DNA from: Halomonadaceae bacterium KBTZ08
GTDB taxonomy: Bacteria; Pseudomonadota; Gammaproteobacteria; Pseudomonadales; Oleiphilaceae
DNA: 32,000 nt
Assembly: GCA_048013405.1 (NCBI GenBank)
Contig: CP182108.1
Span: forward strand, 2,638,987 to 2,670,986
Direction: 5' to 3'
Part shown: one piece after another, positions 1 through 28,414 of the stretch
How the letters are laid out: every line of letters begins with the position of its first letter
How positions within the stretch are numbered: the stretch's first letter is position 1
Program-made: the position numbers and the translations under genes
Notes under the pieces: generated by a model
Told to the model about the DNA's origin: nothing
Database searches by the model: none
Seen by the model: the letters and a program-made list of their open reading frames with translations, nothing else

Positions 1-1219
<1,219 letters not shown>

Positions 1220-8126: not shown

Positions 8127-8210
8127 AGCTGGCTGCTTTAAGCCTCAGTTTTATGGAAGGTGGTCTCCGGCTCCCTTCCTGCAGTTCTACTGGCGCACCG
8201 AGCGAACGAT

Positions 8211-8411: not shown

Positions 8412-8444
8412 GCCGGCACCAATCAGGCCCCTGAAACGAGAGAG

Positions 8445-9248
8445 ATGATGACCAACGAGACCCCCCAGGACGCGCGCCTCACCATTGACGGCACCCCCTA
8501 CCAATCCCGCCTGCTGGTGGGAACGGGCAAATACGCCAGCTGGGAACAGGCCCGTGCGGCCATTGAGACCAGCGGGGCGGAGATGGTGACCATGGCGGTG
8601 CGGCGCACCAACCTGGGCCAGAACCCGGACGAACCCAGCCTTCTGGACATCGTCTCGCCGGAGCAGTACACGCTGCTGCCCAATACCGCCGGGTGCTACA
8701 ACGCCAGGGATGCCGTGCGCACCTGCAAGCTGGCGCGCGAGCTGCTGGACGGCCACAACCTGGTCAAGCTGGAGGTTCTGGGCGATGAGAAGACCCTTTA
8801 CCCGGACGTGACCGAGACCCTGAAGGCGGCGGAACAGCTGATCGACGACGGATTCCGGGTCATGGTCTACACCAATGACGACCCGCTGATCGCGCTCAGG
8901 CTGGAGCGCATGGGGTGTGTGGCGGTCATGCCGCTGGGCGCCCCCATTGGCTCCGGGCTGGGCATCCAGAACCGCTACAACATCCGCACCATTGTTGAGA
9001 ACGCCAGTGTTCCGGTGTTGGTGGATGCAGGCGTGGGCACGGCTTCGGACGCCAGCGTGGCCATGGAACTGGGCTGTGATGGCGTCCTGATGAACACCGC
9101 CATCGCCGAGGCCAGGGAGCCGGTCCGCATGGCCAGGGCCATGGGCAAGGCCATTGAAGCCGGTCGTGACGCCTACCTCGCCGGCCGTATGCCCAAAAAA
9201 GCCTACGCGAGCGCCTCATCGCCGTTTGACGGCACCTTCTTCCAGTGA
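8445..9248 (+). CDS. thiG: Thiazole synthase ThiG
   Basis: 267-aa ORF with ..[10 protein letters not shown].., ..LPNTAGC.., ..[13 protein letters not shown].., typical ThiG motifs. The start may be 8445 or 8448 (tandem ATG). Confidence 0.9.
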
Positions 9249-9442
9249 CCGCTGGGGCGTAAGAGCCCCAGCCCCGTGTGACAGGCCCCGACCGCGCTTT
9301 GGCCGACCCTGTGCCCAACCCGGCGATAGGGTCGATTTGTATAAATTGTGGGCGAAAGCCTGTGCCTCTGCTATACAAATAGAGGGGAGGCGCAGTCCAT
9401 AGAGCCTCCTACTCAGTCAAAGCCGTGATCGTGGAGGACCAC

Positions 9443-10528: not shown

Positions 10529-10557
10529 ACCATCCAAGTCGCCGCTAAGTGAACTCG

Positions 10558-10590
10558 CAGCGGCCATTGCCAAAGGGCAATTGGCCGCTG
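10558..10590 (+). terminator. Stem-loop downstream of the solute-binding protein gene (possible intrinsic terminator)
   Basis: CAGCGGCCATTGCC-AAA-GGGCAATTGGCCGCTG forms a stem of about 14 bp with one bulge, 30 nt after the stop codon. The trailing U-tract is weak (GTTTGC). Confidence 0.35.
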
Positions 10591-10654
10591 GTTTGCTGGA
10601 TATCCTCCTGAGCGACTCTTTGGGAGGTGGCGTTGCGTCAATTCCGACCAGGGC

Positions 10655-10816
10655 TCAGGTCTTGTCGTTGGTCTGACGACGCTTGGCCAGTTCCTTTTTC
10701 GCCCAATCGCCAGCGTGCCGCATCTCTTGCCGCAGTGATTCGATCTCGGATTGTGTCAACCGCCGGTGCTTTCCGGAGGTATCCTGTTTCGCCTTGTGTG
10801 AGTTGGTCGATGTCAT
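10655..10816 (-). CDS. Hypothetical small basic protein (53 aa)
   Basis: Not in the ORF track (too short). Minus-strand ATG at 10816 gives MTSTNSHKAKQDTSGKHRRLTQSEIESLRQEMRHAGDWAKKELAKRRQTNDKT, with TGA at 10655-10657. An AGAGG lies about 9 nt upstream. The charged helical-looking sequence is more protein-like than the overlapping 92-aa frame. Confidence 0.3.
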   Translation of the reverse strand: MTSTNSHKAKQDTSGKHRRLTQSEIESLRQEMRHAGDWAKKELAKRRQTNDKT

Positions 10817-10922
10817 AATGAAACGCCTCTTTCCGATCGTTGTTTATTGGCTGGCCATCTTTGTTCTCCGTGCCGGCCCGCATTGTGTCTTTGGCAACCA
10901 AACGTAATCTACCCATTTGGAT

Positions 10923-11064
10923 GTTAGCCGCGTGCCCGAGTGGCGCAATCTGGGGTCTGGAACTTGTCAGCCCAGGAGAACCGGTTTCTATCCACGCGCC
11001 CGCGTGGGGCGCGACTGGGCGGCTATAACCGCCGCTGCAAGGGAATCAAGGTTTCTATCCACGC
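10923..11064 (-). CRISPR. Remnant (trailer end) of a type I-C-like CRISPR array: degenerate terminal repeat, 33-nt spacer, intact 32-nt repeat, 35-nt spacer, then a repeat truncated after 14 nt by the IS
   Basis: The intact repeat at 10984-11015 reads GTCGCGCCCCACGCGGGCGCGTGGATAGAAAC on the minus strand, a near match to the classical I-C repeat GTCGCGCCCCGCACGGGCGCGTGGATTGAAAC. Positions 11051-11064 repeat the first 14 nt (plus-strand reading) exactly, then diverge into the IS end. Positions 10923-10950 (GTTAGCCGCGTGCCCGAGTGGCGCAATC) are a decayed copy. The 67-nt period (32+35) is typical of I-C. Confidence 0.8.
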
Positions 11065-13500: not shown

Positions 13501-16500
13501 GCGAACGGGCATCCACGATATCTACGGCCTGCAGGAAATTTTCTGAGCTGCCTACGCGGCAGCGAACCCATCCGTGGCGGTCGTTACCCCTGCGGTAGTT
13601 TTCTGAGCTGCCTACGCGGCAGCGAACGGCTCGGAAGAAGTTGCGGGTGATGTGCTTGTTTTCTGAGCTGCCTACGCGGCAGCGAACGCGACAGCTTCCA
13701 GCCTGCGTACAGCGTGGATTTTCTGAGCTGCCTACGCGGCAGCGAACGGTCAGCTCCGCGATTTCCCGGCTGGACATTGTGTTTCTGAGCTGCCTACGCG
13801 GCAGCGAACGTCCAGGATGCCCGCAAGTATGCAGACCTGGATTTCTGAGCTGCCTACGCGGCAGCGAACGGCCAACCTTTGGGGCGAGGACAAGGTCTCT
13901 CTTTTCTGAGCTGCCTACGCGGCAGCGAACAACTTTACGACGCTTTTCGGGAAGGCTCGGAATTTTCTGAGCTGCCTACGCGGCAGCGAACGATATGACG
14001 ATTCAGGATGATGAATCAGTGATTTTCTGAGCTGCCTACGCGGCAGCGAACCGGCTTGTCAAGCTAAAGGCTGGCTACGCAAGTTTCTGAGCTGCCTACG
14101 CGGCAGCGAACTCGTCGTCATCCCAGTTTTTTGCCTGCTCTTTTTTCTGAGCTGCCTACGCGGCAGCGAACCTATGGGATTACGCTACCGCTGCTGTGCT
14201 ACATTTCTGAGCTGCCTACGCGGCAGCGAACTAAGAACTGCGAGGGGTCCGGCCATCTTCTCTGTTTCTGAGCTGCCTACGCGGCAGCGAACCTCGGTGA
14301 TCTTGATATAACGTACTCGGTCCATTTCTGAGCTGCCTACGCGGCAGCGAACGCCCGCCTGATGGGGTTCTATCAGGGTCTGAAGTTTCTGAGCTGCCTA
14401 CGCGGCAGCGAACAAATAATGGCGGACAGAATGATGGAAATGTTCTTTCTGAGCTGCCTACGCGGCAGCGAACCGAAGCATGAGTCAAAACGTATACACC
14501 ACAGTCTTTCTGAGCTGCCTACGCGGCAGCGAACTGCTGCCCATGTTGAGCCATCTGGGGATGATATTTCTGAGCTGCCTACGCGGCAGCGAACCTTAAC
14601 GTACGTTTCAACCGTCTGGTAGGTGTTTTCTGAGCTGCCTACGCGGCAGCGAACCACTCCTTCCGGTTAAGACAACCAGTCGTATATTTCTGAGCTGCCT
14701 ACGCGGCAGCGAACGACCGTCGCGCCCTGGTGCTCGTGTAGCGACTTTTCTGAGCTGCCTACGCGGCAGCGAACGGGCAAGCTCGGAAAGCGCTACTGGG
14801 ATGTATTTTCTGAGCTGCCTACGCGGCAGCGAACGTGGTAATGATCATATTTCATGAGGGGTTACCATTTCTGAGCTGCCTACGCGGCAGCGAACGTCTT
14901 ATGCGGAAAGGCAGCGCCAGAGCGGGGATTTCTGAGCTGCCTACGCGGCAGCGAACAATCACCAACGTCAATCCCGTCGCTGCCACTCTTTTCTGAGCTG
15001 CCTACGCGGCAGCGAACGGTCATCGACAATGAGCGCAGTAAGCCGCTTGATTTCTGAGCTGCCTACGCGGCAGCGAACAAGGAACGGTTTAATAGCGAGG
15101 CCGGCATGACTTTTCTGAGCTGCCTACGCGGCAGCGAACTCGCTTAGACAATGGTTTGTCGACTGCCTCCATTTCTGAGCTGCCTACGCGGCAGCGAACA
15201 TCGAAGACGGCATTATCCGGCGGCTCTCTCGCTTTCTGAGCTGCCTACGCGGCAGCGAACCCGACCTTGGGCGTAGCCTGACAGGGCGTTGTTTTCTGAG
15301 CTGCCTACGCGGCAGCGAACGAAAGAGGGGACGTAAAAACGGCAACCAATCATTTCTGAGCTGCCTACGCGGCAGCGAACAGGGAAACGTGGTCTTTTTT
15401 GAGGCCCGGTAGTTTCTGAGCTGCCTACGCGGCAGCGAACCGCTGATATTTGAAACTTTAGGCGAACTGTTCTTTCTGAGCTGCCTACGCGGCAGCGAAC
15501 AACTTCCTTTGTAATGCCGCCCGCGTTCCTGCTTTCTGAGCTGCCTACGCGGCAGCGAACTGAGCCAGACCCTGAACCTGTTCTTCCTGTTCTTTCTGAG
15601 CTGCCTACGCGGCAGCGAACTGGGACAGTATGACTGTTGCCGCCGCTCGCCATTTCTGAGCTGCCTACGCGGCAGCGAACGGCGAAAAGATGGCGTACAT
15701 GATTACGTACAGTTTCTGAGCTGCCTACGCGGCAGCGAACTTCCCCGACATGGCCACGTCGCCCGGCCAGTATTTCTGAGCTGCCTACGCGGCAGCGAAC
15801 ATCCTTCATAATCTCGTGGATGTCCCGACCTTTTTCTGAGCTGCCTACGCGGCAGCGAACCTGGCAGACGGTTGCAGCTTACGTAAGCTCTGGTTTCTGA
15901 GCTGCCTACGCGGCAGCGAACGAGGAGGCTGTGGCGTGGCGGGTAAGCCACCCGTTTTCTGAGCTGCCTACGCGGCAGCGAACGGATGATGAGGGCTTCA
16001 CGGAATTCGATGCCTTTTCTGAGCTGCCTACGCGGCAGCGAACATCGTCGGCGTCTTGTGCCCAGTCTCGGAGTTTTTCTGAGCTGCCTACGCGGCAGCG
16101 AACGCTGGCTCATTGAGTTTTTAAGCTGGCTGCATTTTCTGAGCTGCCTACGCGGCAGCGAACTTCGGCGAAGTTGCAGCTGCTGATCTATTTTCTTTCT
16201 GAGCTGCCTACGCGGCAGCGAACGATTTGACGGACCTTGGCTGCGTGCTTGCGGATTTTCTGAGCTGCCTACGCGGCAGCGAACAAACCGGCCTGCACGT
16301 CCACCCGGAATACGACTTTTCTGAGCTGCCTACGCGGCAGCGAACGCGGTTTGTAGGCTTAAACTCCCGCGCAGCCGTTTCTGAGCTGCCTACGCGGCAG
16401 CGAACGCGGCGAAAACCTAGTGTTTGGTACCGCGGCATTTCTGAGCTGCCTACGCGGCAGCGAACGCTAACGGCGGCTACCTGTCTGGCAGGTCAGCTTT

Positions 16501-17370
16501 CTGAGCTGCCTACGCGGCAGCGAACCTCAGTTTCCGGGAATCAACTACTGGGCACGATTTCTGAGCTGCCTACGCGGCAGCGAACCCGGGGAAAAGGCGG
16601 AAGCCTCCCCGGAGCGGTTTCTGAGCTGCCTACGCGGCAGCGAACGCAATGGGTACACGCTCGCATGGCGGGCGAATTTTTCTGAGCTGCCTACGCGGCA
16701 GCGAACGCCCGTTCTGTTTTATCAAGGGCATGACCAGCTTTCTGAGCTGCCTACGCGGCAGCGAACACGATCCGACAAACGCCAGCCACCGGGGGGCATT
16801 TCTGAGCTGCCTACGCGGCAGCGAACTTGCGGTACCGGACAAGCTCGCGGGGCGTTATTTTCTGAGCTGCCTACGCGGCAGCGAACACATAGGACCATGG
16901 CCGGAAAAGACGCCTATGCTTTCTGAGCTGCCTACGCGGCAGCGAACGTGGACGCCGACTGGATGCTCGGTCGCCTTAATTTCTGAGCTGCCTACGCGGC
17001 AGCGAACCATAGTCATCCGTGATCTTGCCAAAACTAATATTTCTGAGCTGCCTACGCGGCAGCGAACACTCAGGTTGTAGTTGTTTATGACACATCAGGA
17101 TTTCTGAGCTGCCTACGCGGCAGCGAACAATATGTTTCGCGCCAGCGCGGGCAATATCACTTTTCTGAGCTGCCTACGCGGCAGCGAACATCAACAGCAT
17201 CAACGGGGCGGCGATACAGCTTTTCTGAGCTGCCTACGCGGCAGCGAACATTCACTCGCGTCAGTTCTGCGTATATAGAAACTTTCTGAGCTGCCTACGC
17301 GGCAGCGAACCTGGACGACCAAATCGAAGAGTGGGATCGCCATTTCTGAGCTGCCTACGCGGCAGCGAAC
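13501..17370 (-). CRISPR. Type I-F CRISPR array: 64 identical 28-nt repeats plus a 6-9 nt repeat stump at the IS junction; 64 spacers
   Basis: The plus-strand repeat is TTTCTGAGCTGCCTACGCGGCAGCGAAC. The minus-strand sense is GTTCGCTGCCGCGTAGGCAGCTCAGAAA (compare canonical I-F GTTCACTGCCGTATAGGCAGCTAAGAAA). I located 64 repeat starts by hand, from 13540 to 17343. Periods are 60, 61 or 62 nt (spacers 32-34 nt). The leader-proximal repeat is 17343-17370, next to cas6f. The distal end is cut at 13501-13506 (GCGAAC) by the IS. Confidence 0.97.
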
Positions 17371-17500: not shown

Positions 17501-18064
17501 TCAAAAACAGGGTACCGTTGCATGGTCACTCAGGCCATAAGCGTTAAAGGTGCCAGGCACCGGCTCGTTTTTGGGAGCACTCTGCTCGATAAAACAATGG
17601 AAACGCTGGCGGGTGCTCTGGCTTCGCAGTACAAGAAATGGCAATGACGGGGTTTGTTCCACCTTTGCAGGTATTGCATCAGCCGCCTGTTCATAGGTTT
17701 CATCGTGGCGTTTCATACGCCGTCGCCGCAGTCGTTCCACGTTGGTCTTGAACTGGCGGCGCTTGAAAATACGGTGCTCGGCGTCAGCCGGAACGGGATT
17801 AATACCACTGCTTGCCGTCTGTTCGGAGAGGCCCCGGAGCCAGTCAGTGGCCATCAGGCTCTCCAGTCGCTGTGGCGTTGAGTGCACCCTGAGCACGCTC
17901 CCCAGCGAACGGGGAGCTGTGGAATAGCCAGGGAAGCTGACACCCACGTCGGTCCACTGCTCATTGGCCAGTTGCCGGTGCAGTTTGCTGAAAAGCGCAC
18001 TCATCAGAACCGGCGGCGTGAACTCCGGATCGGGAAGCACCTCAAGCTCAATGTAGTGCGACAT
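17501..18064 (-). CDS. cas6f: Type I-F CRISPR endoribonuclease Cas6f (Csy4)
   Basis: 187 aa. MSHYIELEVLPDPEFTPPVLMSALFSKLHRQL...VGVSFPGY closely parallels the Csy4 N-terminus (MDHYLDIRLRPDPEF..LMS.LF.KLH). It is the last gene before the array. Confidence 0.93.
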   Translation of the reverse strand: MSHYIELEVLPDPEFTPPVLMSALFSKLHRQLANEQWTDVGVSFPGYSTAPRSLGSVLRVHSTPQRLESLMATDWLRGLSEQTASSGINPVPADAEHRIFKRRQFKTNVERLRRRRMKRHDETYEQAADAIPAKVEQTPSLPFLVLRSQSTRQRFHCFIEQSAPKNEPVPGTFNAYGLSDHATVPCF

Positions 18065-19107
18065 TACTCGCCTCCTTCGCCGAATACCCCACCCCGGATC
18101 AGCGTTGCCATCACGAAGTGCTGGTTGCCCGCGTCAGCCGGTTTCTTGTCCTTGAGGATCCAGTTGTCCAGCAGTGAGTAGAAGTCTGCTTTCTGTTTTG
18201 GCTGGCGGTAGGCGGCTCCCTTGGTGGTTACGGAGCCGTAGGGCTCAACAGCGATAGGGCCGACGTCGTCGCCGTTGTCCGTGGGGTACCAGGTGTCGAT
18301 GGTCCTGATGGCGTTGCCAAGTTTCTGGGAGTGGATGCCGGCAATGCCATCAACGCTGTATAGGGTTTTGCTTTTGGTGCGGTTGCCCTGGTTCAGGATG
18401 AGTTCCTGGGAGGGGAAAACTTCCTGGCCATCCCCAATGCGGACGGCTGCACTGATTTCCAGAAGCAAGTGCTCCCGATCTTCCAGGGCCGCCTGGATGT
18501 GCGAGGCCAGTTCGGCAACCTGCTGTTTTTCCGTGTCTTCAACGTTAAAGTTCCGCATGGGGACATTGAAGGCATCAAAGCGCCATTGCTGGCTTCGCTC
18601 TCCTTTCTGGAGCCGACTGACGTCAACCTGGACCTCTTCCGCACCCATGCGATTGCGCCACAGAAAGCGGCCATTGGCCAGGTTGGTCGCATAACGGAAG
18701 GCGAGTGCCTCAAAACCATGCTTATCGCGGTATTCGTTCACAACCTCGCGGAGGCGGTCTTCATAAGGGGCGTTGTTGCAAGCGGAGGGAGTGCCCGTGC
18801 CGCCGAGCACCCTCAGTGTAAAACGCACCACCAGCGTATCGTCTGTGTTGGGAAGGGCGGCTACATCCACGGTTTGCAGGTTGGGGTTCTCGATGTCGGC
18901 ATCGATCTTGGCGGCATCCTGTTGCTTGGCTTTAAGCCGATTGGAAATGGTGCCGCGGACGGATTTCTCCCGGATTGACACGGGTTTCCAGTGCTCTGAA
19001 TGGGCCCGGTCGTCCCAGGTGGTGCTGAACATGAGGCCATCGGAGGGGTCCAGCTTGCGTTCAAACGCGAGGACGGAAGCGGTTTTGAGTGCGTCGTTTT
19101 TAGCCAT
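18064..19107 (-). CDS. csy3: Type I-F Cascade backbone subunit Csy3 (Cas7f)
   Basis: ATG at 19107 (AGGAG 8 nt upstream) gives a 347-aa protein, MAKNDALKTASVLAFERKLDPSDGLMFS.... Position and size fit Csy3. The TAATG overlap with cas6f supports the call. The longer 19251 start would overlap csy2 and is rejected. Confidence 0.9.
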   Translation of the reverse strand: MAKNDALKTASVLAFERKLDPSDGLMFSTTWDDRAHSEHWKPVSIREKSVRGTISNRLKAKQQDAAKIDADIENPNLQTVDVAALPNTDDTLVVRFTLRVLGGTGTPSACNNAPYEDRLREVVNEYRDKHGFEALAFRYATNLANGRFLWRNRMGAEEVQVDVSRLQKGERSQQWRFDAFNVPMRNFNVEDTEKQQVAELASHIQAALEDREHLLLEISAAVRIGDGQEVFPSQELILNQGNRTKSKTLYSVDGIAGIHSQKLGNAIRTIDTWYPTDNGDDVGPIAVEPYGSVTTKGAAYRQPKQKADFYSLLDNWILKDKKPADAGNQHFVMATLIRGGVFGEGGE

Positions 19108-19109
19108 TA

Positions 19110-20132
19110 TTAAAGCTCCTGTGATGGGGTTGAGCTGGTGTTTTGGGTTTCTGCAAAGTCGTTCTGAAGTTGGTAAAGACCTGTTTCGGGGTCTGTCTCG
19201 GGATACCAGAGCATGTCCGCTGGCGTTCTCAATCGATGGGGACTCACCCATTGCCCGATTGAGAACAGGCTTTCAACAAACCGGAATGGGACGGAGGCGT
19301 CCCGGCAGTTGTTGACCTGTCCCTCTCCAAGAGTTTCCGTCAGTGCCCCGAATCCGACCGGTATGGGAACAAACCAGCCAGGGCGGGACGGGCGCCGTAC
19401 CTGCCATTCGGTGTCGTTCTGGGTTTCCTCGCCTGCGCCAGCACTATCGGAGTTCGTGGCCTGGATGTTCAGCCGGGAGAGGTCCAGCCAGGCATCCAGA
19501 AGCGAGGTTTCCGGATCATGCTGGCGGCGTTCGTGCCAGTGCTCGTGCAGAAGATCGTTGCGCAGCACGAGGGAGAACCCTGGCAGCAGCTTGTAGGTCA
19601 GTTGGCGGAATTGGCTCTGCGCCTCGTTTGTATCGTCGCTCAGCGCCACTAGAGAGGAGTGGGTGCGTCGGCCGGGCGCGTTGGTTGTGGGGGCATCGGG
19701 TAGCACGGTTCCGCCGGCTACCCGCATATCGCCGAGCATCTCACGAACGGCCTGGGCCGTTGAGTCCTTCTCCGCATCGGGGGCGTCACAAAGCGCCCCG
19801 AAAACCGAAAACACAAGACTGATGTCCAGGTGGATGCGGCCTTCTTCAACAATAGCGGCTGTCTCACCCTTATGGTTGACCGGGTTGCGGGTCAGGTGAA
19901 GGGCATTGACGTAACCGGACTGCGAGGCCTGGGCCTCATGGCGGTGGCAGACCACGCCCACACCATTAAAGTAGAGGTCCATGCCGGCGGCCTGGATCTG
20001 TCTTTCCAGGGCATGCATGAGGCCCACGAATGCCGTCATGGCAGGGAAGCCCCAGGTCATGGGCCCGGAAATGGCATTGGCGTTCTGCACCCTGATGCGG
20101 GGCAGCACCAGTAGGGCTTGCGCGTCAGACAT
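19110..20132 (-). CDS. csy2: Type I-F Cascade subunit Csy2 (Cas5f)
   Basis: 340 aa. MSDAQALLVLPRIRVQNANAISGPMTWGFPAMTAFVGLMHALERQ is a typical Csy2 N-terminus. It overlaps the csy1 end by 8 nt. Confidence 0.9.
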   Translation of the reverse strand: MSDAQALLVLPRIRVQNANAISGPMTWGFPAMTAFVGLMHALERQIQAAGMDLYFNGVGVVCHRHEAQASQSGYVNALHLTRNPVNHKGETAAIVEEGRIHLDISLVFSVFGALCDAPDAEKDSTAQAVREMLGDMRVAGGTVLPDAPTTNAPGRRTHSSLVALSDDTNEAQSQFRQLTYKLLPGFSLVLRNDLLHEHWHERRQHDPETSLLDAWLDLSRLNIQATNSDSAGAGEETQNDTEWQVRRPSRPGWFVPIPVGFGALTETLGEGQVNNCRDASVPFRFVESLFSIGQWVSPHRLRTPADMLWYPETDPETGLYQLQNDFAETQNTSSTPSQEL

Positions 20133-21423
20133 GGGGAAGCACCTCCTGCAGTTCGTCCAGTCTTTCCTTCAGTTGCTTGGACCAGTGGTCGTACTCGGTA
20201 TCCGAAACGGGAAGGGCGGCTTCAAGGCTGCCGTTGAGCCAGGCGGCGAATGTCTGGCGAATGTGGAGTGGCCAGTCGATGGTCGCGTGGTTGTCGGCAA
20301 ATGCCTCGTCGACCCGTGTGCGGTCCGGATCGAGCCAGTGGGCTTCCGCCTCAGGGAGGTCGCACTCCTCATGGCGGCTCCAGCCAGGCTCCGCCGAGTG
20401 GAGTTCGCTGGTGAAGAGGATCAGCTCATCGATCAATGCATGGATGAATTCGTCCCGGTGTTCCCGGGTAGCGGCGGTGGGTTTAGGGTCCGACTTGAGA
20501 AACGCCCTGAGGTCCCTCACAAGCTCTCGGGTCGTGGTTCGTTTCCCGAAAATCTTGAATGCGGAGGCGACCCGCAGGGGGAGGCGAGCATCCGGGGAAT
20601 GCCATGTTGGCGGAAGCGATCTCAGCAGGTAGTTGACGCCTCCACGTTCGCTGTTGAGCTGGGAGATATTCTGCGGTTTGGAACCGCCGAATTTCTGGAT
20701 GGCGAGATCGGGGTAAAAGCGGACCTCGGTATCGGAATACGCTCCGTTCCGGCGGGCTTGGCGAGCTGCTTTGGCGCTTTCCCCGAAACGGTCCTCGTTG
20801 ATGGTCCGGTACACATCATGGGCCAAGGAGGTGGCGTAAAGCGGGGCCAGCAAATGGAACTGGGAGTCGTCGCTCGGGTCATCTCCCGTCAGCCAGTAGA
20901 ACTGTTTGGCTCTGGTGTGGGAAGCGTAGGTGCCTGCGGGCTCCGTGATGCCGGCAAAGGCACTGACCCATTCCAGGGCTAGCTCCCGATCCTCACTCAG
21001 CGCGGCGATCAGTTCCGGGTCTTGGCGCAGGGCGCGTTCAAGCAATGACTCACCATTGAGCTCAATACGGAGAAACTTATAAACGTCCAATTGGGCGGCG
21101 TTGCCCACCACATCAGGGCTGAAGTTCGTTTTCAGGAGGTGGCTTCCCACAAAGGGATGATCTGGAAGCTGCTCTGGGGGGGCGTACAGATTGGTCCCTT
21201 TGGCGTCGGGGTGGATGGGCTTGAGGGAATGGGTGACGACCTGGAGCTGATTGACGCGTTTTGCCGCCTGTTCGAGCCAGGTGCTGAATTGGTGTTGCTG
21301 CGCCAGGGCGTTCCGTTTGTCGGGGTCGCTCTGGGTTTTGAGTTTGGTTTCCAGGCGCGCGTTGATGAAAGAGTTTATGAGCTCCCTCAGTTGAGACGCC
21401 TCTTCCGATACAGTGTTTTCCAT
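20125..21423 (-). CDS. csy1: Type I-F Cascade large subunit Csy1 (Cas8f)
   Basis: 432 aa, located between cas2-3 and csy2. The Csy1-like N-terminal region reads ..FINARLETKLK...QLQVVTHSLKPIHPDAKGTNLY... Confidence 0.88.
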   Translation of the reverse strand: MENTVSEEASQLRELINSFINARLETKLKTQSDPDKRNALAQQHQFSTWLEQAAKRVNQLQVVTHSLKPIHPDAKGTNLYAPPEQLPDHPFVGSHLLKTNFSPDVVGNAAQLDVYKFLRIELNGESLLERALRQDPELIAALSEDRELALEWVSAFAGITEPAGTYASHTRAKQFYWLTGDDPSDDSQFHLLAPLYATSLAHDVYRTINEDRFGESAKAARQARRNGAYSDTEVRFYPDLAIQKFGGSKPQNISQLNSERGGVNYLLRSLPPTWHSPDARLPLRVASAFKIFGKRTTTRELVRDLRAFLKSDPKPTAATREHRDEFIHALIDELILFTSELHSAEPGWSRHEECDLPEAEAHWLDPDRTRVDEAFADNHATIDWPLHIRQTFAAWLNGSLEAALPVSDTEYDHWSKQLKERLDELQEVLPHV

Positions 21424-21444
21424 AATCGCCTCGTAGTGTCCGGC

Positions 21445-24400
21445 TTAATCCTGGTTTGAAAAGCCAATCAGTGGGTTGAAGCGCCAACCTTGATCATTGT
21501 TCCGAAGGCTCAGCTTTCCAAACTTCGCGGCGCATTCCATTAAGTCCATCTCCATGTTGTCAGCAAGTTGGTTTAATAGTGTCATATAATCCGTTTCAAC
21601 CCAGGGCCCTATGGCAGTCTCCTGGGGAGAATTAAGCGTGATTCGATGGAGCTTACTTTTTTCCACCTGGCGGTAGATGGTCTCCCCTCGCTTCTCGCCG
21701 TTCGCTATTTCGTGCAACACGAAATCCTCTTCCGTCTCGTCAGGCAAAAGGACGAGCTCGGACTCTTGAGCCGTTCTTTCACGGAATGGCTTCCACTGCT
21801 GAAGGACGCCGGTCAGGTGGGCGTAAGGCAGATAGTGGAAGCTGTAAGCGCCCAGAACCGGTTCGCTGCGGCGCTTCGCCTTTTGGCGTGGTGACAGCGC
21901 CTGGCCGCTGTCAGTGTCTTGCGAAGATTGGCCGTCTGGCATTTCCGGTGCCACGAGCAGCTCTTCCAAACGGGCGTGTTCCAGGTCACAAAGATTGCCT
22001 TGGGGGTCCAGTTTCGGCCGTCTTAGAAGGCGCGGTCGCGAGTCGATCACCTCGTATTCGTCTGGGGTCAGCACGTCGCTGAGTGAGTGGCTGCGGAGTT
22101 GCCATTGGCCGTATCCCTCGAATCCGGGCCGCATGAACGCAGGCTCCGCGGGCCGCTTCAATGCTGCGAGGTTTTTGTCCAGAAGGAAAACGTTGGGCTG
22201 TTCCGGCGTGATGGTGCGATGGCGCACAACACGGCCGGCAAGCTGGATGATGGAGCGCATGGAAGAGGGTTCCACGATGGCCCAGTCATAGTCGTGATCC
22301 CGCCCCACCTCGGTCACCGGCGAGCCCAGCACGATAAAGAGCTGGTCCGGTTCCGGGTGGCTATCCAGCTGGCCCCGGATTTCTGGTAGCTCGAAAACAG
22401 CCTTTTCATCCGAACGGCTAAGCGCACGATCAAGATGATGCTCGATCGCGGAACGCACCAGCAGTGGGAACTGCGAATGGTAGACGCACAGGTGGATGCG
22501 CGTACCGGTGACGCCTTCCAGAGCGTACATGGCCTCGGCGACCTGGATCAGCGGATCAATGTTGGCCATGCGGATGAGGCCGAAACTGACACGTTTGCCC
22601 GTCTTGGGGTCCTCCGTATGATGCCGGCCGTGCAGGGTTTGGCTGTGTTCCAGGAATTGCTTGGCCAGGCTGCTGGGGATTTCCGTTTTGTGCACGCCTT
22701 CGGGCAGGTTGTTGATGAGGGCGCCACGACGCCTTACAGCATGCTGGCTGAGTTTCCGGGTTCGCTGGTGGGCGAACTCGGCATGCGCTTCCCCGAACGC
22801 TTGTTTGGAGTCGCAATTGTGATGAGTGCGCTGATGTTCATCGAACCAGGCACAGCAGACGTTAGCGGGGCGGCTGGACTCGCCCCGGTTCTTCTGGTAC
22901 TCCGCGCGCCCGGCGCGGTACGCATCGAAAAGGCCCATTGCCAGGTCCGGGGTTATGGTTGCTGACGAGAGTATGAGCCGGGTGCCAAGAAGGCCGGCCC
23001 AGAATGTTAGCCGGGTCAGCGCATGGAGGTCGTTCAGGGCAAAATCGTCGATTTCGTCGAGTACCAGGTCGCTACTCAGCAGGCGCAGCATGGGAGCAAT
23101 CTGGTGGCCGCTCTTGAGGCTTTCGGTGGCTGGCATGAGGTGGTCGACCGTGCAGCTCAGGATGGGGGCTGAAAGCAGGGAGCGCGTATGCGGATCATCG
23201 GCAACCCGGTTCAAAAGGGGATGGTCATCAATGTTGCCTTCAAAGTAGACATGCGAATCTTCACTCATCAATCCTTGTGAGGAAGCGGACCCAGCCTTCT
23301 CTGCCTGCTCCTCATAATAGTCGTGAAGCACCCGGTTGGCGGCGCCGCCGACCCTGATGGCGAGCTCGTCTTCACCCAGGCCCAGGCGTTGCCGGTACGC
23401 CTGGCCGGTCTGCAGCGTCAGCGTGCGTAACCCCAGGGCAATGGAAAAGCGGGCACCGCGATTGGGATCCGCCAGAGCGTAAAGAATGCGCCCGTTGGCC
23501 AGGGTTTTTCCGCACCCGGTTGAGGCCATGTTGATGCCAAAGAAGCCCTGATCCTGGCTCTTCTGGCGGAGTGATTCCGCAAGGTCAAAGGCGTGGTCCT
23601 GCCAGCGGAAACGGCTGTTGCTGCTGCGCTTCCGGAACCCTTTATGGCGCCCGAGGCGTGGGAGGTAGCGTTCGACACCGGGCAGATTGTGGGCAATTTC
23701 CATAGAGGTCTTCATGACCCCCAGGATGTGCTCGTCCAGTGGTTGATTGAACGCTCCTGTTTTCCTGTCGGTGTTGGCGAAAACCGGGTAATCCGGTTCA
23801 CCCTCGTACCGGTACTGTTTTTCAGTAAGGCTAGAGTAGTGGTGGTCCGCCAGCATCAGCGACAATCTGGTCAGATGCATCAGATAGGCGTTATCAAGGT
23901 AGCCTCCGGAGGGGTGGCGTCGAGCCTGAAGCCGACGGGCTACTTTCGCTGCCTGGTTCTGCCATTTCTCGGTGGTAACAGGGGTTGGATGTTCAAACGC
24001 CCAATAGGGTTTTAGGTCGCTCGGTGACGTGGACTGGGTCCGCTCATTCCACTCAGCGTCAATGATTCCCGGAATGTTACGCAGTTGGCCGGCACGCAGG
24101 CTGTCTGGTTTGGCCCCCCATCTTGACTTATCAGTGGGCATCGCGGGCAGGCGGTGATGGGACAGGATCAGCCATCCAATGGCGGCCGCTAGTGGTGGAA
24201 GGTTGGCGAGCGGGTAGTCTGTCTGTTCCGTAAGGCCATCCTGCTGAAGGCTGTCCATAAACGCCTTGTCGGAGACCGAGTTGGTTGAGGCAAGTCGTTC
24301 AAGCCAGGCTGCGTCATCGTCGCTTCCCACAAATGCTTGGAAGAGCCTCAGAGATATCCATTCATGGCGGATCAGGTTCTTCTGCTGGGCATCGGCACCG

Positions 24401-24813
24401 CCTCGGAGCCGGTTCTGGAAGGCGGCACAGACTTTACCGAGGTCATGCATGAGCGCGGCCATGGCAGCCAGCAGTTTGATGTCCTCGCCGGTATGCCAGT
24501 CGTTCTCATCCATGGAACGACGAATGTCGTGGGTGGTGGTATTGGTGGGCACAGTACCTGTCGCGCTGAATTGGCGGGCATTGCCCACAATCCATAGGAG
24601 CTCACTGTGGTCTTTGCCTCGGATCCAGTGGCAGGCCACGGCTGTGTTCTTTCGGGCTTTTTGTCTGAGCAGTTTGCGCAGGGTGTTCAGGCCTTCCTGG
24701 GTGATCGGTGTCTGCCAGGTGCGTTCACCCTTGCGCTCAGCGAACTGATCGAGGATCCGGCGGGTTTCGGTGAGCGCACGGCCGCTGCACTGGGATACCA
24801 GCAGTATGTTCAT
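21445..24813 (-). CDS. cas3: Type I-F Cas2-Cas3 fusion protein (Cas2/3: Cas2 domain + HD nuclease + SF2 helicase)
   Basis: 1122 aa. N-terminal Cas2-like region MNILLVSQCSGRALTETRRILDQFAERKG.... HD region ..LMHDLGK... Helicase Walker A ..ASTGCGKT.. and DExD-like ..LVLDEIDD... Size and position between cas1 and csy1 are diagnostic for I-F. Confidence 0.93.
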   Translation of the reverse strand: MNILLVSQCSGRALTETRRILDQFAERKGERTWQTPITQEGLNTLRKLLRQKARKNTAVACHWIRGKDHSELLWIVGNARQFSATGTVPTNTTTHDIRRSMDENDWHTGEDIKLLAAMAALMHDLGKVCAAFQNRLRGGADAQQKNLIRHEWISLRLFQAFVGSDDDAAWLERLASTNSVSDKAFMDSLQQDGLTEQTDYPLANLPPLAAAIGWLILSHHRLPAMPTDKSRWGAKPDSLRAGQLRNIPGIIDAEWNERTQSTSPSDLKPYWAFEHPTPVTTEKWQNQAAKVARRLQARRHPSGGYLDNAYLMHLTRLSLMLADHHYSSLTEKQYRYEGEPDYPVFANTDRKTGAFNQPLDEHILGVMKTSMEIAHNLPGVERYLPRLGRHKGFRKRSSNSRFRWQDHAFDLAESLRQKSQDQGFFGINMASTGCGKTLANGRILYALADPNRGARFSIALGLRTLTLQTGQAYRQRLGLGEDELAIRVGGAANRVLHDYYEEQAEKAGSASSQGLMSEDSHVYFEGNIDDHPLLNRVADDPHTRSLLSAPILSCTVDHLMPATESLKSGHQIAPMLRLLSSDLVLDEIDDFALNDLHALTRLTFWAGLLGTRLILSSATITPDLAMGLFDAYRAGRAEYQKNRGESSRPANVCCAWFDEHQRTHHNCDSKQAFGEAHAEFAHQRTRKLSQHAVRRRGALINNLPEGVHKTEIPSSLAKQFLEHSQTLHGRHHTEDPKTGKRVSFGLIRMANIDPLIQVAEAMYALEGVTGTRIHLCVYHSQFPLLVRSAIEHHLDRALSRSDEKAVFELPEIRGQLDSHPEPDQLFIVLGSPVTEVGRDHDYDWAIVEPSSMRSIIQLAGRVVRHRTITPEQPNVFLLDKNLAALKRPAEPAFMRPGFEGYGQWQLRSHSLSDVLTPDEYEVIDSRPRLLRRPKLDPQGNLCDLEHARLEELLVAPEMPDGQSSQDTDSGQALSPRQKAKRRSEPVLGAYSFHYLPYAHLTGVLQQWKPFRERTAQESELVLLPDETEEDFVLHEIANGEKRGETIYRQVEKSKLHRITLNSPQETAIGPWVETDYMTLLNQLADNMEMDLMECAAKFGKLSLRNNDQGWRFNPLIGFSNQD

Positions 24814-25790
24814 GAGCTGGTACCTGCTTTGAGTGTTGCCGGGACGGTTTTAACGGTGTCGATCATGAAATCGAGAGCTTCGTTACGGGATAAGAGCTCA
24901 ATACAGGATTGCCTGAAGTCCTGTTCCTCATCGCCCCGGACCGCTGAGATGAACGCCTGGGGCAGTATCGTGGCGTCCTTGATCAGGTCGGCAATATCGA
25001 ACACCAGTCCGCCGCGCCGCGTCTTGCCATGCAGTACGGACAGCCCGTGTGGCAATCCGAGGACCCAGGCCGCCGTGGCTCCGAGTCCATAGGCGAGGTA
25101 ATTGCCATGGTCGAGGAACCGGTTGGCGGGATCGGTACCGGTTCCGCGCTTGGCCCTGGAGAAATCACCGTAGTTCACTGATGCAGCTGCAAGGCTGAAC
25201 AGCTTCTTGGTGAGTCGCGCTTCTTCGGTAAGAAGGGCTGTATTATCCGGCGCCTGCTTTATGGCGTTTTCGGATTCCTGCAGCAGCGGTTCGAGCTGTT
25301 GCGCTTCAATCCGGAAGTTGTTGTCAGCGAGGAGCCGATTGTTGAGCCATACATCGCGGATGCGCTGCAAGCGGGCTTGTTGGAACAATCGGGCGGCGTT
25401 GAGCCTCTGTTCGTCGTCAAACCAGAAGGCAACCCAGCTCTGAAGGTACTCGGTGGGGCGGTATTCGGATTGGGGCGAGAACCAGGAAACATCGAACTCG
25501 ACTTCGTTCGCACTGAAAAGCGGTGTCCCGCCGCCGCCACAGAAGCCGAGCATGACGCCAGCCTTGGCAAGCTCCCTGACCGCAGCCTGTGTTATGGATG
25601 TTCCGGTTCCCAGCAGAACGGACGAGGTATTTGCGATTGGGATGTTCCAGTAGAGAGATCGCTTGGCCTCATCGGTCACAAAGGCAACACGGCCTCCTTT
25701 CACCAATACACGGCAGTGCTCCAGGAAGTAGATGTTGGCCCGCTTGCTGATCAGGATTGTTTTCAGGTCACTTGGTGAAAGGTCATCCAT
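24810..25790 (-). CDS. cas1: Type I-F CRISPR integrase Cas1
   Basis: ATG at 25790 gives a 326-aa protein, MDDLSPSDLKTILISKRANIYFLEHCRVLVKGGRVAFV..., typical of Cas1f. ATGA-type overlap with cas2-3. The 25922 start in the ORF track adds 44 non-conserved residues and runs into the WYL gene. Confidence 0.92.
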   Translation of the reverse strand: MDDLSPSDLKTILISKRANIYFLEHCRVLVKGGRVAFVTDEAKRSLYWNIPIANTSSVLLGTGTSITQAAVRELAKAGVMLGFCGGGGTPLFSANEVEFDVSWFSPQSEYRPTEYLQSWVAFWFDDEQRLNAARLFQQARLQRIRDVWLNNRLLADNNFRIEAQQLEPLLQESENAIKQAPDNTALLTEEARLTKKLFSLAAASVNYGDFSRAKRGTGTDPANRFLDHGNYLAYGLGATAAWVLGLPHGLSVLHGKTRRGGLVFDIADLIKDATILPQAFISAVRGDEEQDFRQSCIELLSRNEALDFMIDTVKTVPATLKAGTSS

Positions 25791-25878
25791 GGTGTCTGCC
25801 CGTGTTTCCTGATGATTTGAGTATTGTAGTAGGTAGGCTAACAGCGGGCCTGCCCCACATAACGCATCACTGGTGGAA

Positions 25879-26844
25879 TCACCAGTACAAGCCGTGCATG
25901 CGTGAGACCTGGTCCGCAACATCCCGCCTCAATGCCTCGGGACCAATCACTTCCACGTCGGGCCCATAACGGAGAACTTCCATAACCAACTCCGTTGGGT
26001 CCGCGTAGGGTACGTAGAGGTGGAAAAAGCCATCGGCGGTCCATTGGCTCTGCTGGTCCGGGTGCCACAGTTCCTCGGCGCTCCAGCGCGCCGCCCGTGG
26101 TGAGAAGCAAAGATGGGCCGTTTGGCGCGCTTCGCCGGTGAAGATGCCGAAACTGGTGCCAAATTCGGCGTCCAGGGTTTCGGGCGGGCATTCATGGGCG
26201 TTGCTGCTGGTGACGCAAGTGGCGTTGATCCGGTCCAGCGAGAACAGGCGCAGCGCCCCGGTTTCATGGCACCAGCCCAGCAGGTACCAGTTGGAGCGGT
26301 AGTGCAGCAGCCGCTGCGGGCTGATGGTTCGTTCCTGCGTCTGCTCCCGGCTGCGGCTGGTGTAGCGAACATGGAGCTGGAGGCCACGAAGGGTCGCCTC
26401 GGCCACATTGCGGAAGATGGACTCCGGGGCATGGCGGGCCAGGATGGGCTGGATCCGGATGCGTTCGCTCAGGCGCTGGGCCGTGTCGCCGTCGTCGCCC
26501 AGAAGCTCCCGGATGCGGTTCTTGAGCGGGGCCAGGTGCGGCGTCATCAGCCCGGGCTGGACGGCTTCCAGCAGTTGCTCGCTGGCCAGCAGGGCGTGGA
26601 GCTCGCTGGCGTTCATCCAGAAGCCGGGGAGCTCGAAAACCGGTTCCTCGGGGTCGTATTCGTGGCCGTTGTGCTCGCGGTTGTAGGTGATGGGCGCGCG
26701 GAGGATGTCGCGCATGAACTGGAAGTCGCGCGTGATGGTGTTGCGCGAGGCCTCCAGGGATTCCATGAACCGCTGCATCGGCACCGGCGAACGCGCCGAG
26801 CGCAGCATGTCATGGATGCGGTAGATGCGTTCGATCTGGCTCAC
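25879..26844 (-). CDS. HTH-WYL-WCX transcriptional regulator (YafY/CapW/BrxR-like)
   Basis: 321 aa, GTG start at 26844 (AAGGA 6 nt upstream). N-terminal winged-HTH ..MQRFMESLEASRNTITRDFQFMRD... Central WYL domain ..SPQRLLHYRSNWYLLGWCHETGALRLFSLDRI... C-terminal WCX-like ..VPYADPTELVMEVLRYGPDVEVIGPEALR... It lies 88 nt upstream of cas1 on the same strand. Confidence 0.85.
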   Translation of the reverse strand: MSQIERIYRIHDMLRSARSPVPMQRFMESLEASRNTITRDFQFMRDILRAPITYNREHNGHEYDPEEPVFELPGFWMNASELHALLASEQLLEAVQPGLMTPHLAPLKNRIRELLGDDGDTAQRLSERIRIQPILARHAPESIFRNVAEATLRGLQLHVRYTSRSREQTQERTISPQRLLHYRSNWYLLGWCHETGALRLFSLDRINATCVTSSNAHECPPETLDAEFGTSFGIFTGEARQTAHLCFSPRAARWSAEELWHPDQQSQWTADGFFHLYVPYADPTELVMEVLRYGPDVEVIGPEALRRDVADQVSRMHGLYW

Positions 26845-27051
26845 TGGACGTCCTTATGGGGCTGCTTATGCGCCTCTTGAACACCATCTTTAGCACAGGT
26901 TTCTCATGGATTTGAACCAGTGGCAAGGGGGGTAAAGATAAACCGGGCTTAATTGGGCTGGCTTGTCACCATTGACGGGGAAGTTGTAAGCTTTATCCAG
27001 GTTCTGGCAAAAGCCATGGAAACAGGGAATAGAGAAGCAAGGAGCAAGGGA

Positions 27052-27936
27052 ATGGCAGATTTCAGGATTCAGGCCACTGTGGGTCAGGGTGGAGACAACC
27101 GCGCGAATGACTGCAAGCTGATATGCGCCCTCCTCAATGTCTATGCCCGCAAAAAGGGAAAGGACACCGTTGAAATCAAGAAAAAGGCCGACTCGGATGT
27201 CATTACCGCAATAGAGGGGTTTCAGAAAGATCAACTGGGTATGGACAAGCCCGACGGTCGTGTTGACGTCGGTGCTGGCACCTGGCGTGAATTAAACAGG
27301 GTTCTGAAATCCACCCGCACCACAAAGTCGATCACCCCACCCGAAAACGGCGTTATAACCTGGAAAGCGGAAGGCAATGAAGGCGGCCCCTTCCACAGCC
27401 GTATCCTGCACGTCCCAAGTCAGTGGTCTGGCCTGACATTGGGGCGCGGTTACGATATGAAATACCGGGAGAAAGCGGCTATTGTCTCGGCTTTGACGAA
27501 AGTTGGTGTCAATGGAGATAAAGCCAAGCGGATCAGTCACGGTGCGGGTAAAAGTGGCGGGAAGGCGAGACAGGTTATCATTGATCAGGATCTTCTGGAT
27601 TTTGAGATAAGCCCGAAGGGGCAGCTTCAGTTGTTTGAGCAGGTTTACGGTGAGTATGTTGAAAGGGCCAAGCGACTTTCTTTGACGAACAGGTATGCAA
27701 AAAAATATAAGAAAACTGAGTGGGGGAGTCTCAACCCAAAAATAAAGAATGTTCTTGTGGATTTGACGTATCGTGGCGATTATAGGCCGGATACCATGAA
27801 ATTTCTACAGAAGCACGTTTCAAATAATGATTTTAGTAAATTTAAAATAGAATTGGAGAAAAGGGGTAATTGGTCAAACGTGCCAGAAAATCGTTTTCAG
27901 GCACGGGTTTCCTATTTAAATGAAGGTTCAGGGTAG
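27052..27936 (+). CDS. Peptidoglycan-binding-domain protein with a C-terminal pesticin/T4-lysozyme-like (muramidase-type) domain; no signal peptide
   Basis: ATG at 27052 (AAGGAG 7 nt upstream), 294 aa. The N-terminal PG_binding_1-like segment is ..ITAIEGFQKDQLGMDKPDGRVDVGAGTWRELN... The C-terminal segment is ..WKAEGNEGGPFHSRILHVPSQWSGLTLGRGYDM...WGSLNPKIKNVLVDLTYRGDY.., resembling the lysozyme-like E...T-x5-D arrangement of pesticin-family toxins. The assignment is from motif recognition only. Confidence 0.6.
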   Translation: MADFRIQATVGQGGDNRANDCKLICALLNVYARKKGKDTVEIKKKADSDVITAIEGFQKDQLGMDKPDGRVDVGAGTWRELNRVLKSTRTTKSITPPENGVITWKAEGNEGGPFHSRILHVPSQWSGLTLGRGYDMKYREKAAIVSALTKVGVNGDKAKRISHGAGKSGGKARQVIIDQDLLDFEISPKGQLQLFEQVYGEYVERAKRLSLTNRYAKKYKKTEWGSLNPKIKNVLVDLTYRGDYRPDTMKFLQKHVSNNDFSKFKIELEKRGNWSNVPENRFQARVSYLNEGSG

Positions 27937-27940
27937 AGGT

Positions 27941-28414
27941 ATGACAATGTTTTCATTGTTAAAGAGGGCTGGGATGATGTTGGTTATAGGGGGGGCGGCC
28001 TCACTTACTTATGCGCAACCCTATTTCCAGGTGCCAGCTGATGTCTCTGAGCTGAAAGCTGAACGTCTTAACGGCGTTATATTCCGCTATATCGAATTTT
28101 TTGACTACCCTTGTTTGCGCCTTGAAACGCTGGCCCTGAGCGAGGGGAGTCTATCGGTTGACGCACAAAAAGACATCTGCAGCCTTACTCCCAAAGGAGA
28201 AGATCCGATAACCTTTAAGAAGAATGTGACCTCTGTCGTTTCTGATGATATTAAGGAGCAAGATGCGAGTTTTTCATTTCGTGCAGAGTACGTTCTAGCC
28301 GAAGTAAGTGCGCCAATCTTCTATACCGACTGCAACGTGAAGGTTGAAACGACGGGTGCGCTGGGCGAGGTCAAATGCGGTCCGAGGAAGCAACTCGATC
28401 TTGATGCTGAGTGA
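27941..28414 (+). CDS. Sec-exported small protein with four Cys (candidate periplasmic immunity protein)
   Basis: ATG at 27941 or 27947, just after the upstream stop (27934-27936), with GAGG upstream. MTMFSLLKRAGMMLVIGGAASLTYA/QP is a cleavable signal peptide. The mature protein is about 130 aa with four Cys and no recognisable enzymatic motif. It shares the low G+C of the preceding gene. Confidence 0.55.
   Translation: MTMFSLLKRAGMMLVIGGAASLTYAQPYFQVPADVSELKAERLNGVIFRYIEFFDYPCLRLETLALSEGSLSVDAQKDICSLTPKGEDPITFKKNVTSVVSDDIKEQDASFSFRAEYVLAEVSAPIFYTDCNVKVETTGALGEVKCGPRKQLDLDAE

Follow-up and report, generated by a model that had tools for sequence, protein, structure and literature searches.

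WYL-domain regulators and a shared promoter element at the head of type I CRISPR-Cas operons of different subtypes

The window considered here (the whole stretch of 32,000 nucleotides that was analysed, from contig CP182108.1 of Halomonadaceae bacterium KBTZ08) carries a complete type I-F operon of CRISPR-associated (cas) genes, preceded on the same strand by a gene encoding a winged helix-turn-helix (wHTH) protein with a WYL and a WCX domain. It was observed that the link of this WYL gene to cas operons is conserved among its relatives but is not specific to type I-F, and that the short gap between the regulator gene and cas1f holds a composite promoter element shared by loci of different subtypes. 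We consider it probable that the WYL protein acts as a dedicated local regulator of the cas promoter, for which single-stranded DNA (ssDNA) would be the probable signal. The WYL-led arrangement of cas operons is real, probably functional and of an already known kind; the present analysis contributes the promoter element common to these loci and the finding that it is unique in the genome, the shuffling of modules behind the regulator irrespective of subtype, and the closer kinship of the latter to activators.

The earlier note on this DNA had described a 321-aa HTH-WYL-WCX protein co-oriented with the cas operon and ending 88 nt before cas1, and the open reading frame (ORF), the Pfam matches and the coordinates all agree with this description. 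The ORF is intact, with a GTG start codon and an AAGGA Shine-Dalgarno-like site 7 nt upstream, and the 88-nt gap extends from its stop codon (25881-25879) to the ATG of cas1 (at 25790). Pfam recognised HTH_11 at residues 6-54, WYL at residues 143-208 (E 6.7e-21) and WCX at residues 240-316 (E 4.2e-15), and an AlphaFold model (predicted local distance difference test, pLDDT, of 81) presented helices and strands in the same order, which places the protein in the wHTH-WYL-WCX class. Among the PADLOC profiles, the CRISPR-associated WYL profile PDLC01457 matched residues 3-304 over profile positions 2-228 of 229 (E 1.8e-38), followed by PDLC01652 (E 2.2e-33), and in NCBIfam no family was found above the cut-off. 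Across the family, R172, C192 and R199 of the WYL domain are invariant and R183 is near-invariant, and these residues fit the ligand groove of basic residues and a cysteine described for WYL domains by Makarova et al. (2014, PMC4012209). The I-F operon downstream is complete, and all six cas proteins match I-F equivalog models. The claimed absence of a terminator hairpin between regulator and operon was also borne out: a consensus scan of 25600-27200 returned neither a sigma-70 promoter nor an intrinsic terminator, and the sole hairpin in the gap overlaps the stop codon of the WYL gene, lacks a U-tract and is no more stable than shuffled sequences.

The WYL family comprised 653 members at E <= 1e-10, and the loci compared were drawn from reference genomes, from metagenome contigs and from 401 genomes of the same order that were picked regardless of their cas content; individual loci are referred to by their handles (L001 and so on). 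A co-oriented type I cas operon stands behind all 13 evaluable homologues of at least 55% identity (55-100%), at 45-190 nt from the WYL gene, the exception being L015, in which a 0.75-kb insertion lies between the two. In a maximum-likelihood tree, the window protein falls in a clade (clade 1) with 99% support in the Shimodaira-Hasegawa-like approximate likelihood ratio test (SH-aLRT), whose members lead six I-F operons (the window, L054, L055, L013, L014 and L017), four I-C operons (L001, L002, L053 and L016) and three I-E operons (L003, L004 and L015), one further member being not evaluable. A second clade (clade 2) accounts for eight I-F and five I-C operons together with two members without cas genes, and I-G operons are led by more distant relatives (L008, L010 and L011). 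In the order-wide sample, 19 of the 36 evaluable homologue loci lead cas operons; counted conversely, a member of the WYL family is located directly upstream of cas1f in 11 of the 65 other cas1f-carrying genomes of the sample. A sister clade of 17 members had zero cas genes among the neighbours checked, and the neighbours identified by Pfam were ordinary metabolic and transport genes, including those for a phosphorylase, a Na/Pi transporter and an AMP-binding enzyme. The co-occurrence of orthologues with cas genes, which had been suggested as a check, proved positive and far beyond chance.

The subtype served by the regulator is another matter. The subtypes appear randomly distributed over the tree, and near-identical regulators were found in front of different subtypes, as in the pairs L041 (I-F) and L042 (I-C), L014 (I-F) and L015 (I-E), and L003 (I-E) and L054 (I-F). 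The earlier idea of a switch specific to type I-F is not supported, since members of one clade, even near-identical proteins, lead I-C, I-E and I-F operons alike, and since in the window itself a I-F system took the place of a I-C system, as detailed further below.

The alignment of the clade-1 loci downstream of the WYL stop codon revealed a composite element whose parts keep a constant order: a dyad, the sequence [AG]TGC, 6-7 variable nt, TGGGGCAG (or variants of it), 9 nt and a TAnnnT hexamer at the predicted -10 position. In all 13 loci the dyad has a fixed N10 spacing and the distance from TGGGGCAG to TAnnnT is exactly 9 nt, the hexamer being often preceded by TG at -15/-14 (about 8 of the 13 elements), and the first cas start codon follows 31-58 nt past the element. 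No -35 hexamer is conserved in this alignment, where the -35 position is occupied by variable sequence. Transcription would most likely start near 25828, a prediction made from these conserved positions that places the centre of the dyad at about -49.5. It had been noted previously that the gap contains a -10-like TACAAT (25828-25823) without a good -35; this hexamer is indeed present, but the conserved one is TAGCCT (25840-25835), 12 nt upstream. The conserved element sits exactly in the gap that had been proposed as a target for footprinting.

A model of this element (R1), built from 12 loci, gave exactly one match in each clade-1 locus and zero elsewhere in 667 kb, and it recovered at E 9e-6 the element of L015, a locus outside the training set. 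In the 3.42-Mb genome to which the window belongs, the match in the WYL-cas1 gap was the single significant one, with the runner-up at 11.5 bits, and the scan with R1 found no copy of the element upstream of the WYL gene. The dyad overlaps the end of the WYL gene in the window, and it was considered whether it could simply follow from the conservation of the Tyr-(Trp)-stop codons that end the protein. This was ruled out by displaced elements, which begin 37 nt past the WYL stop codon in L014 and L017 and, in L015, adjoin the I-E cas3 gene at 0.75 kb from the WYL stop codon; coding constraint does not explain an element that is kept away from the stop codon. Two other candidates were rejected, namely a sigma-54 reading of the conserved block, in which the GG and GC dinucleotides, inspected by hand, are not at the needed spacing, and an operator formed by the imperfect repeat at 26894-26922, upstream of the WYL gene, of which just 5/8 positions are kept in L053, the closest locus sharing the WYL leader of the window.

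An analogous element was found in clade 2, reading CTGG-ATAAATCA-CCAG followed by GACAGG, TTTTGAC, a spacer of about 11 nt and TAnnnT. With a strict pattern it was located in 13 of the 15 loci and nowhere else in 678 kb, and in the remaining two it is visible by eye. The dyad was absent around 20 WYL homologues that do not adjoin cas genes. Among 40 I-F loci without a WYL neighbour, it occurred within 481 nt upstream of cas1f in eight, against 3.3 expected by chance, and only four of the 40 have it near the promoter. The dyad thus tracks the presence of the WYL gene.

Some loci of this second group, and others related to it, presented additional features. In some clade-2 WYL-led I-F operons an extra ORF is found between cas1f and cas2-3f, encoding 209-275 aa in L045, L047 and L051 and 106 aa in L041. 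In L038 and L046 there are two copies of the clade-2 element, one after the WYL stop codon and one before the cas operon, which flank a small gene for a hydrophobic protein; in these loci the control site thus seems to serve a further gene as well. L034 and L040 retain the clade-2 element after the WYL stop codon with no cas genes behind it, and a gene for an AP-endonuclease-2-type TIM-barrel protein lies two ORFs farther on in L034; both look like loci in which the cas operon was lost or replaced. Finally, L048 and L050 contain a tandem pair of WYL-family genes, similar to PafB/PafC, with no cas genes nearby.

The flanks of the window record how the present arrangement came about. L001 belongs to a Salicola species; its WYL protein shares 91% identity with that of the window and leads a I-C operon, and the sequence flanking the I-C array in the L001 genome is 93% identical to positions 8000-10896. 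From this flank identity and from the I-C array stub retained in the window, it was concluded that the I-C cas genes formerly located behind this WYL gene gave way to the I-F array and operon, with an IS21 element at the far end. At the regulator end of the locus, identity to L001 extends over the final two thirds of the WYL gene and a further 45 nt after its stop codon, then breaks inside the promoter element, between TGGGGCAG and the -10, 9 nt before the latter. Across this break the arriving I-F sequence still has TAnnnT at the correct distance, which fits an exchange between two WYL-led loci. The WYL gene itself is a mosaic produced by recombination, its leader and first 150-200 nt being closest to L053 (72-95% identity in 60-nt windows) and the rest being closest to L001 (up to 100%). 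The regulator gene and the promoter element behave as a cassette that is independent of the CRISPR subtype.

The upstream side of the WYL gene lacks such constancy. The homology of its leader to relatives ends at 26931, and there the contig of a related strain diverges as well. The divergent two-gene cassette that follows, whose proteins had zero matches in Pfam and PADLOC, is absent from the related-strain contigs recovered from public metagenomes, which cover 25180-26931 and resume at 28380; in the related strain, the WYL gene is preceded instead by an L053-like upstream region, and its orthologues occur in at least three other upstream contexts. The cassette is strain-specific and stands outside the conserved unit. 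Since the upstream context varies and the downstream operon is constant, the constant partner of the regulator is the cas operon and not any upstream gene. The three sequencing runs that hold the DNA of the window are probably DNA metagenomes and not RNA.

Two side observations concern the regulator gene and its domains. Control by cAMP-CRP/Vfr is known for I-F systems, and a near-perfect CRP-type palindrome, TGTGA-N6-TCACA, lies about 50-70 nt upstream of the WYL start codon in L004, L005, L014, L015 (where it reads TTGTGACGAAGGTCACAAA) and L017, so that it may link those WYL-cas units to such control; the WYL leader of the window is without it. Moreover, the PADLOC profile PDLC01766 (Cas3c, 1009 positions) matched residues 140-320 of the WYL protein through its positions 133-316 (E 7e-18), and according to this match a fused WYL-WCX region is carried by some I-C Cas3 proteins, as mentioned by Makarova et al. 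(2014).

The kinship of the regulator bears on how it may work. Its domain layout had been described as that of the CapW/BrxR/YafY class, and this layout is indeed shared with CapW and BrxR, but in both sequence and fold the protein is closer to DriD and PafBC. In a phmmer search against solved structures, PafBC ranked first (E 7e-20), followed by PafC (2e-11), DriD (about 1e-6), BrxR (6e-6) and CapW (3e-3). When the AlphaFold model was compared by Foldseek, DriD was the best match (E 1.6e-16, template modelling (TM) score 0.60-0.63), then PafBC (about 1e-13), whereas BrxR and CapW reached E values of 1e-11 to 1e-9 with TM scores of about 0.35 and ranked 16th and lower. In the structural comparison with CapW and BrxR that had been recommended, DriD and PafBC gave the better fit.

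DriD, an ssDNA-activated WYL activator of Caulobacter crescentus, resembles the window protein in its single-gene architecture of the homodimer type, and in its promoters, which have no -35, the spacing between the dyad site and the -10 is fixed (PMC13004042). However, the two proteins share only 20-22% identity, the DriD box (CGAC-N7-GTCG) overlaps the -35 position while the dyad of the window, CTG-N10-CAG, is centred farther upstream, and DriD runs a DNA-damage regulon, whereas the element of the window is a single genomic site. PafBC of the actinobacteria, whose -10 is of the TAnnnT type, is likewise an ssDNA-activated activator, acting through sigma adaptation; unlike the window protein, it is a heterodimer or a two-WYL fusion with an asymmetric role and a large regulon. 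Its promoters have no -35 and contain a conserved motif at -26, upstream of the -10 (PMC11804915). DdaA, a WYL activator of DNA-damage and defence genes in Moraxellaceae, uses a palindrome about 50 bp upstream of where transcription begins, and in experiments with Acinetobacter it increased both the transcription of I-F cas genes and interference, more so after ultraviolet irradiation (PMC12392091). By its description, DdaA is a global regulator encoded away from cas genes, with the motif CGWCA-N5-TGWCG, in contrast to the window protein, which is encoded at the head of the operon. The fixed distance to the -10 in DriD promoters, the -26 motif of PafBC and the site near -50 of DdaA resemble the geometry predicted for the element described here. 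Its single occurrence in the genome does not correspond to a multi-gene DNA-damage regulon of the type run by these three activators.

CapW and BrxR, which precede the CBASS (cyclic oligonucleotide-based antiphage signalling system) and BREX (bacteriophage exclusion) operons, resemble the window protein in standing first in a defence operon and have ssDNA as their known ligand, but they are repressors and more distant relatives. Binding of ssDNA is in fact common to DriD, PafBC, CapW and BrxR (PMC13004042 for DriD and PMC11804915 for PafBC). Sll7009 of Synechocystis is similar in that this WYL regulator, too, serves one type I CRISPR-Cas locus, as repressor of a I-D system; by description it belongs to another subtype and phylum, and no significant similarity between Sll7009 and BrxR was found by Picton et al. 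(2022).

The arrangement as such is not new, and the earlier statement that this regulatory mode was undescribed could not be maintained. A role of wHTH-WYL proteins in regulating CRISPR-Cas was predicted by Makarova et al. (2014, PMC4012209), and the PADLOC entry PDLC01457 ('WYL; CAS-I..VI associated_signaling') corresponds to the window protein in its wHTH and WYL domains, in the adjoining cas genes and in a full-length profile match. Moreover, 21 of the 210 systems downstream of BrxR homologues were CRISPR-Cas systems (Picton et al. 2022), a 2025-26 preprint counts CRISPR-Cas among the partners of defence-associated WYL proteins, and a 2026 paper on Shewanella reports WYL genes adjoining cas1 in I-F systems; the DdaA experiments complete this picture. 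The CRISPR-associated WYL class (PMC4012209) is defined by computation, with no operator, ligand or sign described for the members adjacent to I-F, I-C or I-E operons. In the literature searched, no experimental study of a WYL regulator encoded beside an operon of these three subtypes was found, and among the cas-adjacent WYL regulators only Sll7009 (I-D) had been tested.

Based on these likenesses, the following mechanism is proposed. The wHTH-WYL-WCX protein, of the homodimer type, would target the -35-less promoter in the gap before cas1f, most likely by binding to the conserved element. Its WYL domain would bind ssDNA arising from phage attack, DNA damage or interference, as suggested by homology to DriD, PafBC, CapW and BrxR, and ligand binding would reposition the wHTH domains, so that cas transcription would be turned on. 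With respect to the sign of regulation, activation in the style of DriD, PafBC or DdaA is slightly favoured over repression, because the closest relatives are activators, the promoter has no -35 and the -10 hexamers are weak; derepression in the style of CapW and BrxR is less probable and keeps an appreciable chance of being correct. An inducible repressor is therefore not the sole, and perhaps not the best, reading of the locus.

Several points weigh against this interpretation. The -10 hexamers (TAGCCT, TACAAC and similar) are weak, the -10 and the transcription start are placed by positional conservation only, and the window has a better hexamer, TACAAT, 12 nt downstream of TAGCCT. The TGn extended -10 of about 8 of the 13 elements could be active without an activator. 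The defence-linked WYL regulators tested so far (Sll7009 of the I-D system, BrxR, CapW and the WYL protein of DdmDE) are all repressors. In addition, the flanks of the dyad are the same as those of the SOS box of recA in this genome, so that LexA might bind there instead of the WYL protein, and the two WYL clades share the dyad despite having different recognition helices.

Part of these points finds its place in a repressor of the CapW/BrxR type, in which a WYL dimer on the dyad and the conserved block would shut an extended -10 cas promoter until released by ssDNA. Such a repressor would have the same domain layout and would likewise precede a defence operon, the tested defence-linked WYL regulators repress through inverted repeats, the conserved block spans -22 to -59, where a bound protein could block RNA polymerase, and TG at -15/-14 could give activator-independent initiation. 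We nevertheless regard this model as possible rather than likely, given that sequence and fold are nearer to the activators DriD and PafBC, and that the promoter has no -35, weak -10 hexamers and no hit in the generic promoter scan. A further alternative takes the dyad as a LexA SOS box, so that LexA would repress the cas promoter and the WYL protein would act through the clade-specific block at -26 (TGGGGCAG in clade 1, TTTTGAC in clade 2), which would amount to a dual DNA-damage control. The dyad, CTG-N10-CAG with TACTG and CAGTG flanks, has flanks identical to those of the recA box of the genome; the lexA and recA boxes read CTGT-N8-ACAG (TACTGT-N8-ACAGTG-like) and the cas dyad reads CTGG-N8-CCAG, differing mainly at position 4 and its mirror. 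The ruvAB SOS box of Escherichia coli reads CTGG...CCAG. Several clade-2 dyads are AT-rich and near the SOS consensus, and the dyad is common to both WYL clades in spite of their different recognition helices, whereas each clade has its own -26 block. However, the dyad was seen in all cas-linked WYL loci examined, near the promoter in at most 4/40 I-F loci without a WYL neighbour and around about 0/20 WYL homologues that do not adjoin cas genes, and this tight association argues for the WYL protein as the binder; position 4 is mostly G and not the canonical T, and a homodimeric wHTH protein needs a dyad, the element containing no other strong one. This reading is rather unlikely, but LexA might bind the dyad, alone or together with the WYL protein. 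As an observation apart from the WYL-led loci, L083 and L084, which belong to one genus and have no WYL neighbour, present an SOS box of canonical, AT-rich form, CTGTAAAAAATGACAG, which lies about 115-125 nt upstream of cas1f, and in these loci LexA possibly controls the I-F operon directly.

The replacement history raises the question of whether the WYL gene is a relic of the I-C system without control over the present I-F operon. Both the far flank and the stub of the I-C array do match L001, in which the regulator leads a I-C operon, and the homology to L001 does stop 9 nt before the -10; but the new sequence keeps TAnnnT at exactly 9 nt and TG at -15/-14, as expected from a WYL-led donor, relatives of 57-80% identity also lead I-F operons (L054, L055, L013, L014 and L017), and the WYL gene is intact with every family-invariant residue kept, all of which makes a relic improbable. 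Least credible of all is that the WYL protein regulates the divergent lysozyme-like cassette (27052-28414) and not the cas genes. Sharing of a 207-nt intergenic region with the WYL gene speaks for this, and exclusive binding to that promoter had been named as an outcome that would overturn the proposed link to cas genes; yet the cassette is missing in the close strain and in all orthologous loci, which show three other upstream contexts, and the conserved element has no copy on the upstream side of the WYL gene. Being strain-specific, the cassette is not the conserved partner.

Going beyond the preferred reading of a local cas regulator, a more tentative proposal, which we hold to be doubtful as a whole, sees the WYL gene and the -35-less promoter as a portable, subtype-independent 'ignition cassette', comprising a DriD/PafBC-like, ssDNA-triggered activator and a dyad possibly shared with LexA. 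This cassette would stay at the 5' end, while recombination within the gene or the element would exchange the I-C, I-E, I-F and I-G modules that follow it. The features of the window to which the foregoing refers are collected in Table 1.

Table 1. Features of the window, with coordinates counted from its first nucleotide
Feature	Coordinates	Strand	Basis or remarks
Type I-C array stub	10923..11064	minus	Sequence reading; I-C repeats match
Type I-F CRISPR array, ~64 repeats	13501..17370	minus	Repeat families
Type I-F cas operon	17501..25790	minus	Pfam and NCBIfam equivalogs
cas6f	17501-18064	minus	Pfam/NCBIfam equivalogs
csy3	18064-19251	minus	Pfam/NCBIfam equivalogs
csy2	19110-20132	minus	Pfam/NCBIfam equivalogs
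csy1	20125-21423	minus	Pfam/NCBIfam equivalogs
cas2-3f	21445-24813	minus	Pfam/NCBIfam equivalogs
cas1f	24810-25790	minus	TIGR03637, E 3e-150
Composite cas-promoter element (model R1 match)	25823..25892	minus	48.9 bits, E 2.7e-13 in the window
-10-like hexamer TAGCCT (TAnnnT), with TG at -15/-14	25835..25840	minus	Positional conservation across I-C, I-E and I-F loci
TGGGGCAG motif, ~-29..-22 (about -26)	25850..25857	minus	Invariant or near-invariant alignment columns
GTG[AG]TGC, conserved, upstream of TGGGGCAG	25870-25864	minus	Invariant or near-invariant alignment columns
Dyad TACTG-N10-CAGTG, candidate WYL operator	25868..25887	minus	Overlaps WYL stop codon; SOS-box-like CTG-N10-CAG
WYL regulator gene	25879..26844	minus	ORF and translation, Pfam, PADLOC, AlphaFold; 321 aa
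WYL protein layout (residues): wHTH 1-70; linker helices ~79-128; WYL ~141-215; WCX ~240-320			
Leader and promoter region of WYL gene, conserved, ~87 nt	26845..26931	minus	Alignment with L053
Divergent two-gene cassette	26932..28379	plus	~295-aa protein and 164-aa protein with signal peptide

What is known of the regulation of I-F systems concerns mainly quorum sensing, CRP and H-NS-like factors, and how type I CRISPR-Cas systems sense the need for their own activity is still poorly understood. If the proposed regulation is true, a local ssDNA-sensing switch would constitute a general layer of damage- or infection-inducible control for I-F, I-C, I-E and I-G systems, present at roughly one of every six I-F loci in the order (as in the 11 of 65 sampled genomes) and equally at I-C, I-E and I-G loci. 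The conserved element is a concrete, short DNA target (25823-25893), which allows a clean test of activation against repression for cas-linked WYL proteins. Cas3 makes ssDNA during interference, and if the more tentative proposal of a portable cassette holds, this ssDNA could give a positive feedback, leading to more interference and primed adaptation after a target hit. Finally, with its constant regulator and changing modules, the locus shows in what way one chromosomal site can exchange one CRISPR subtype for another.

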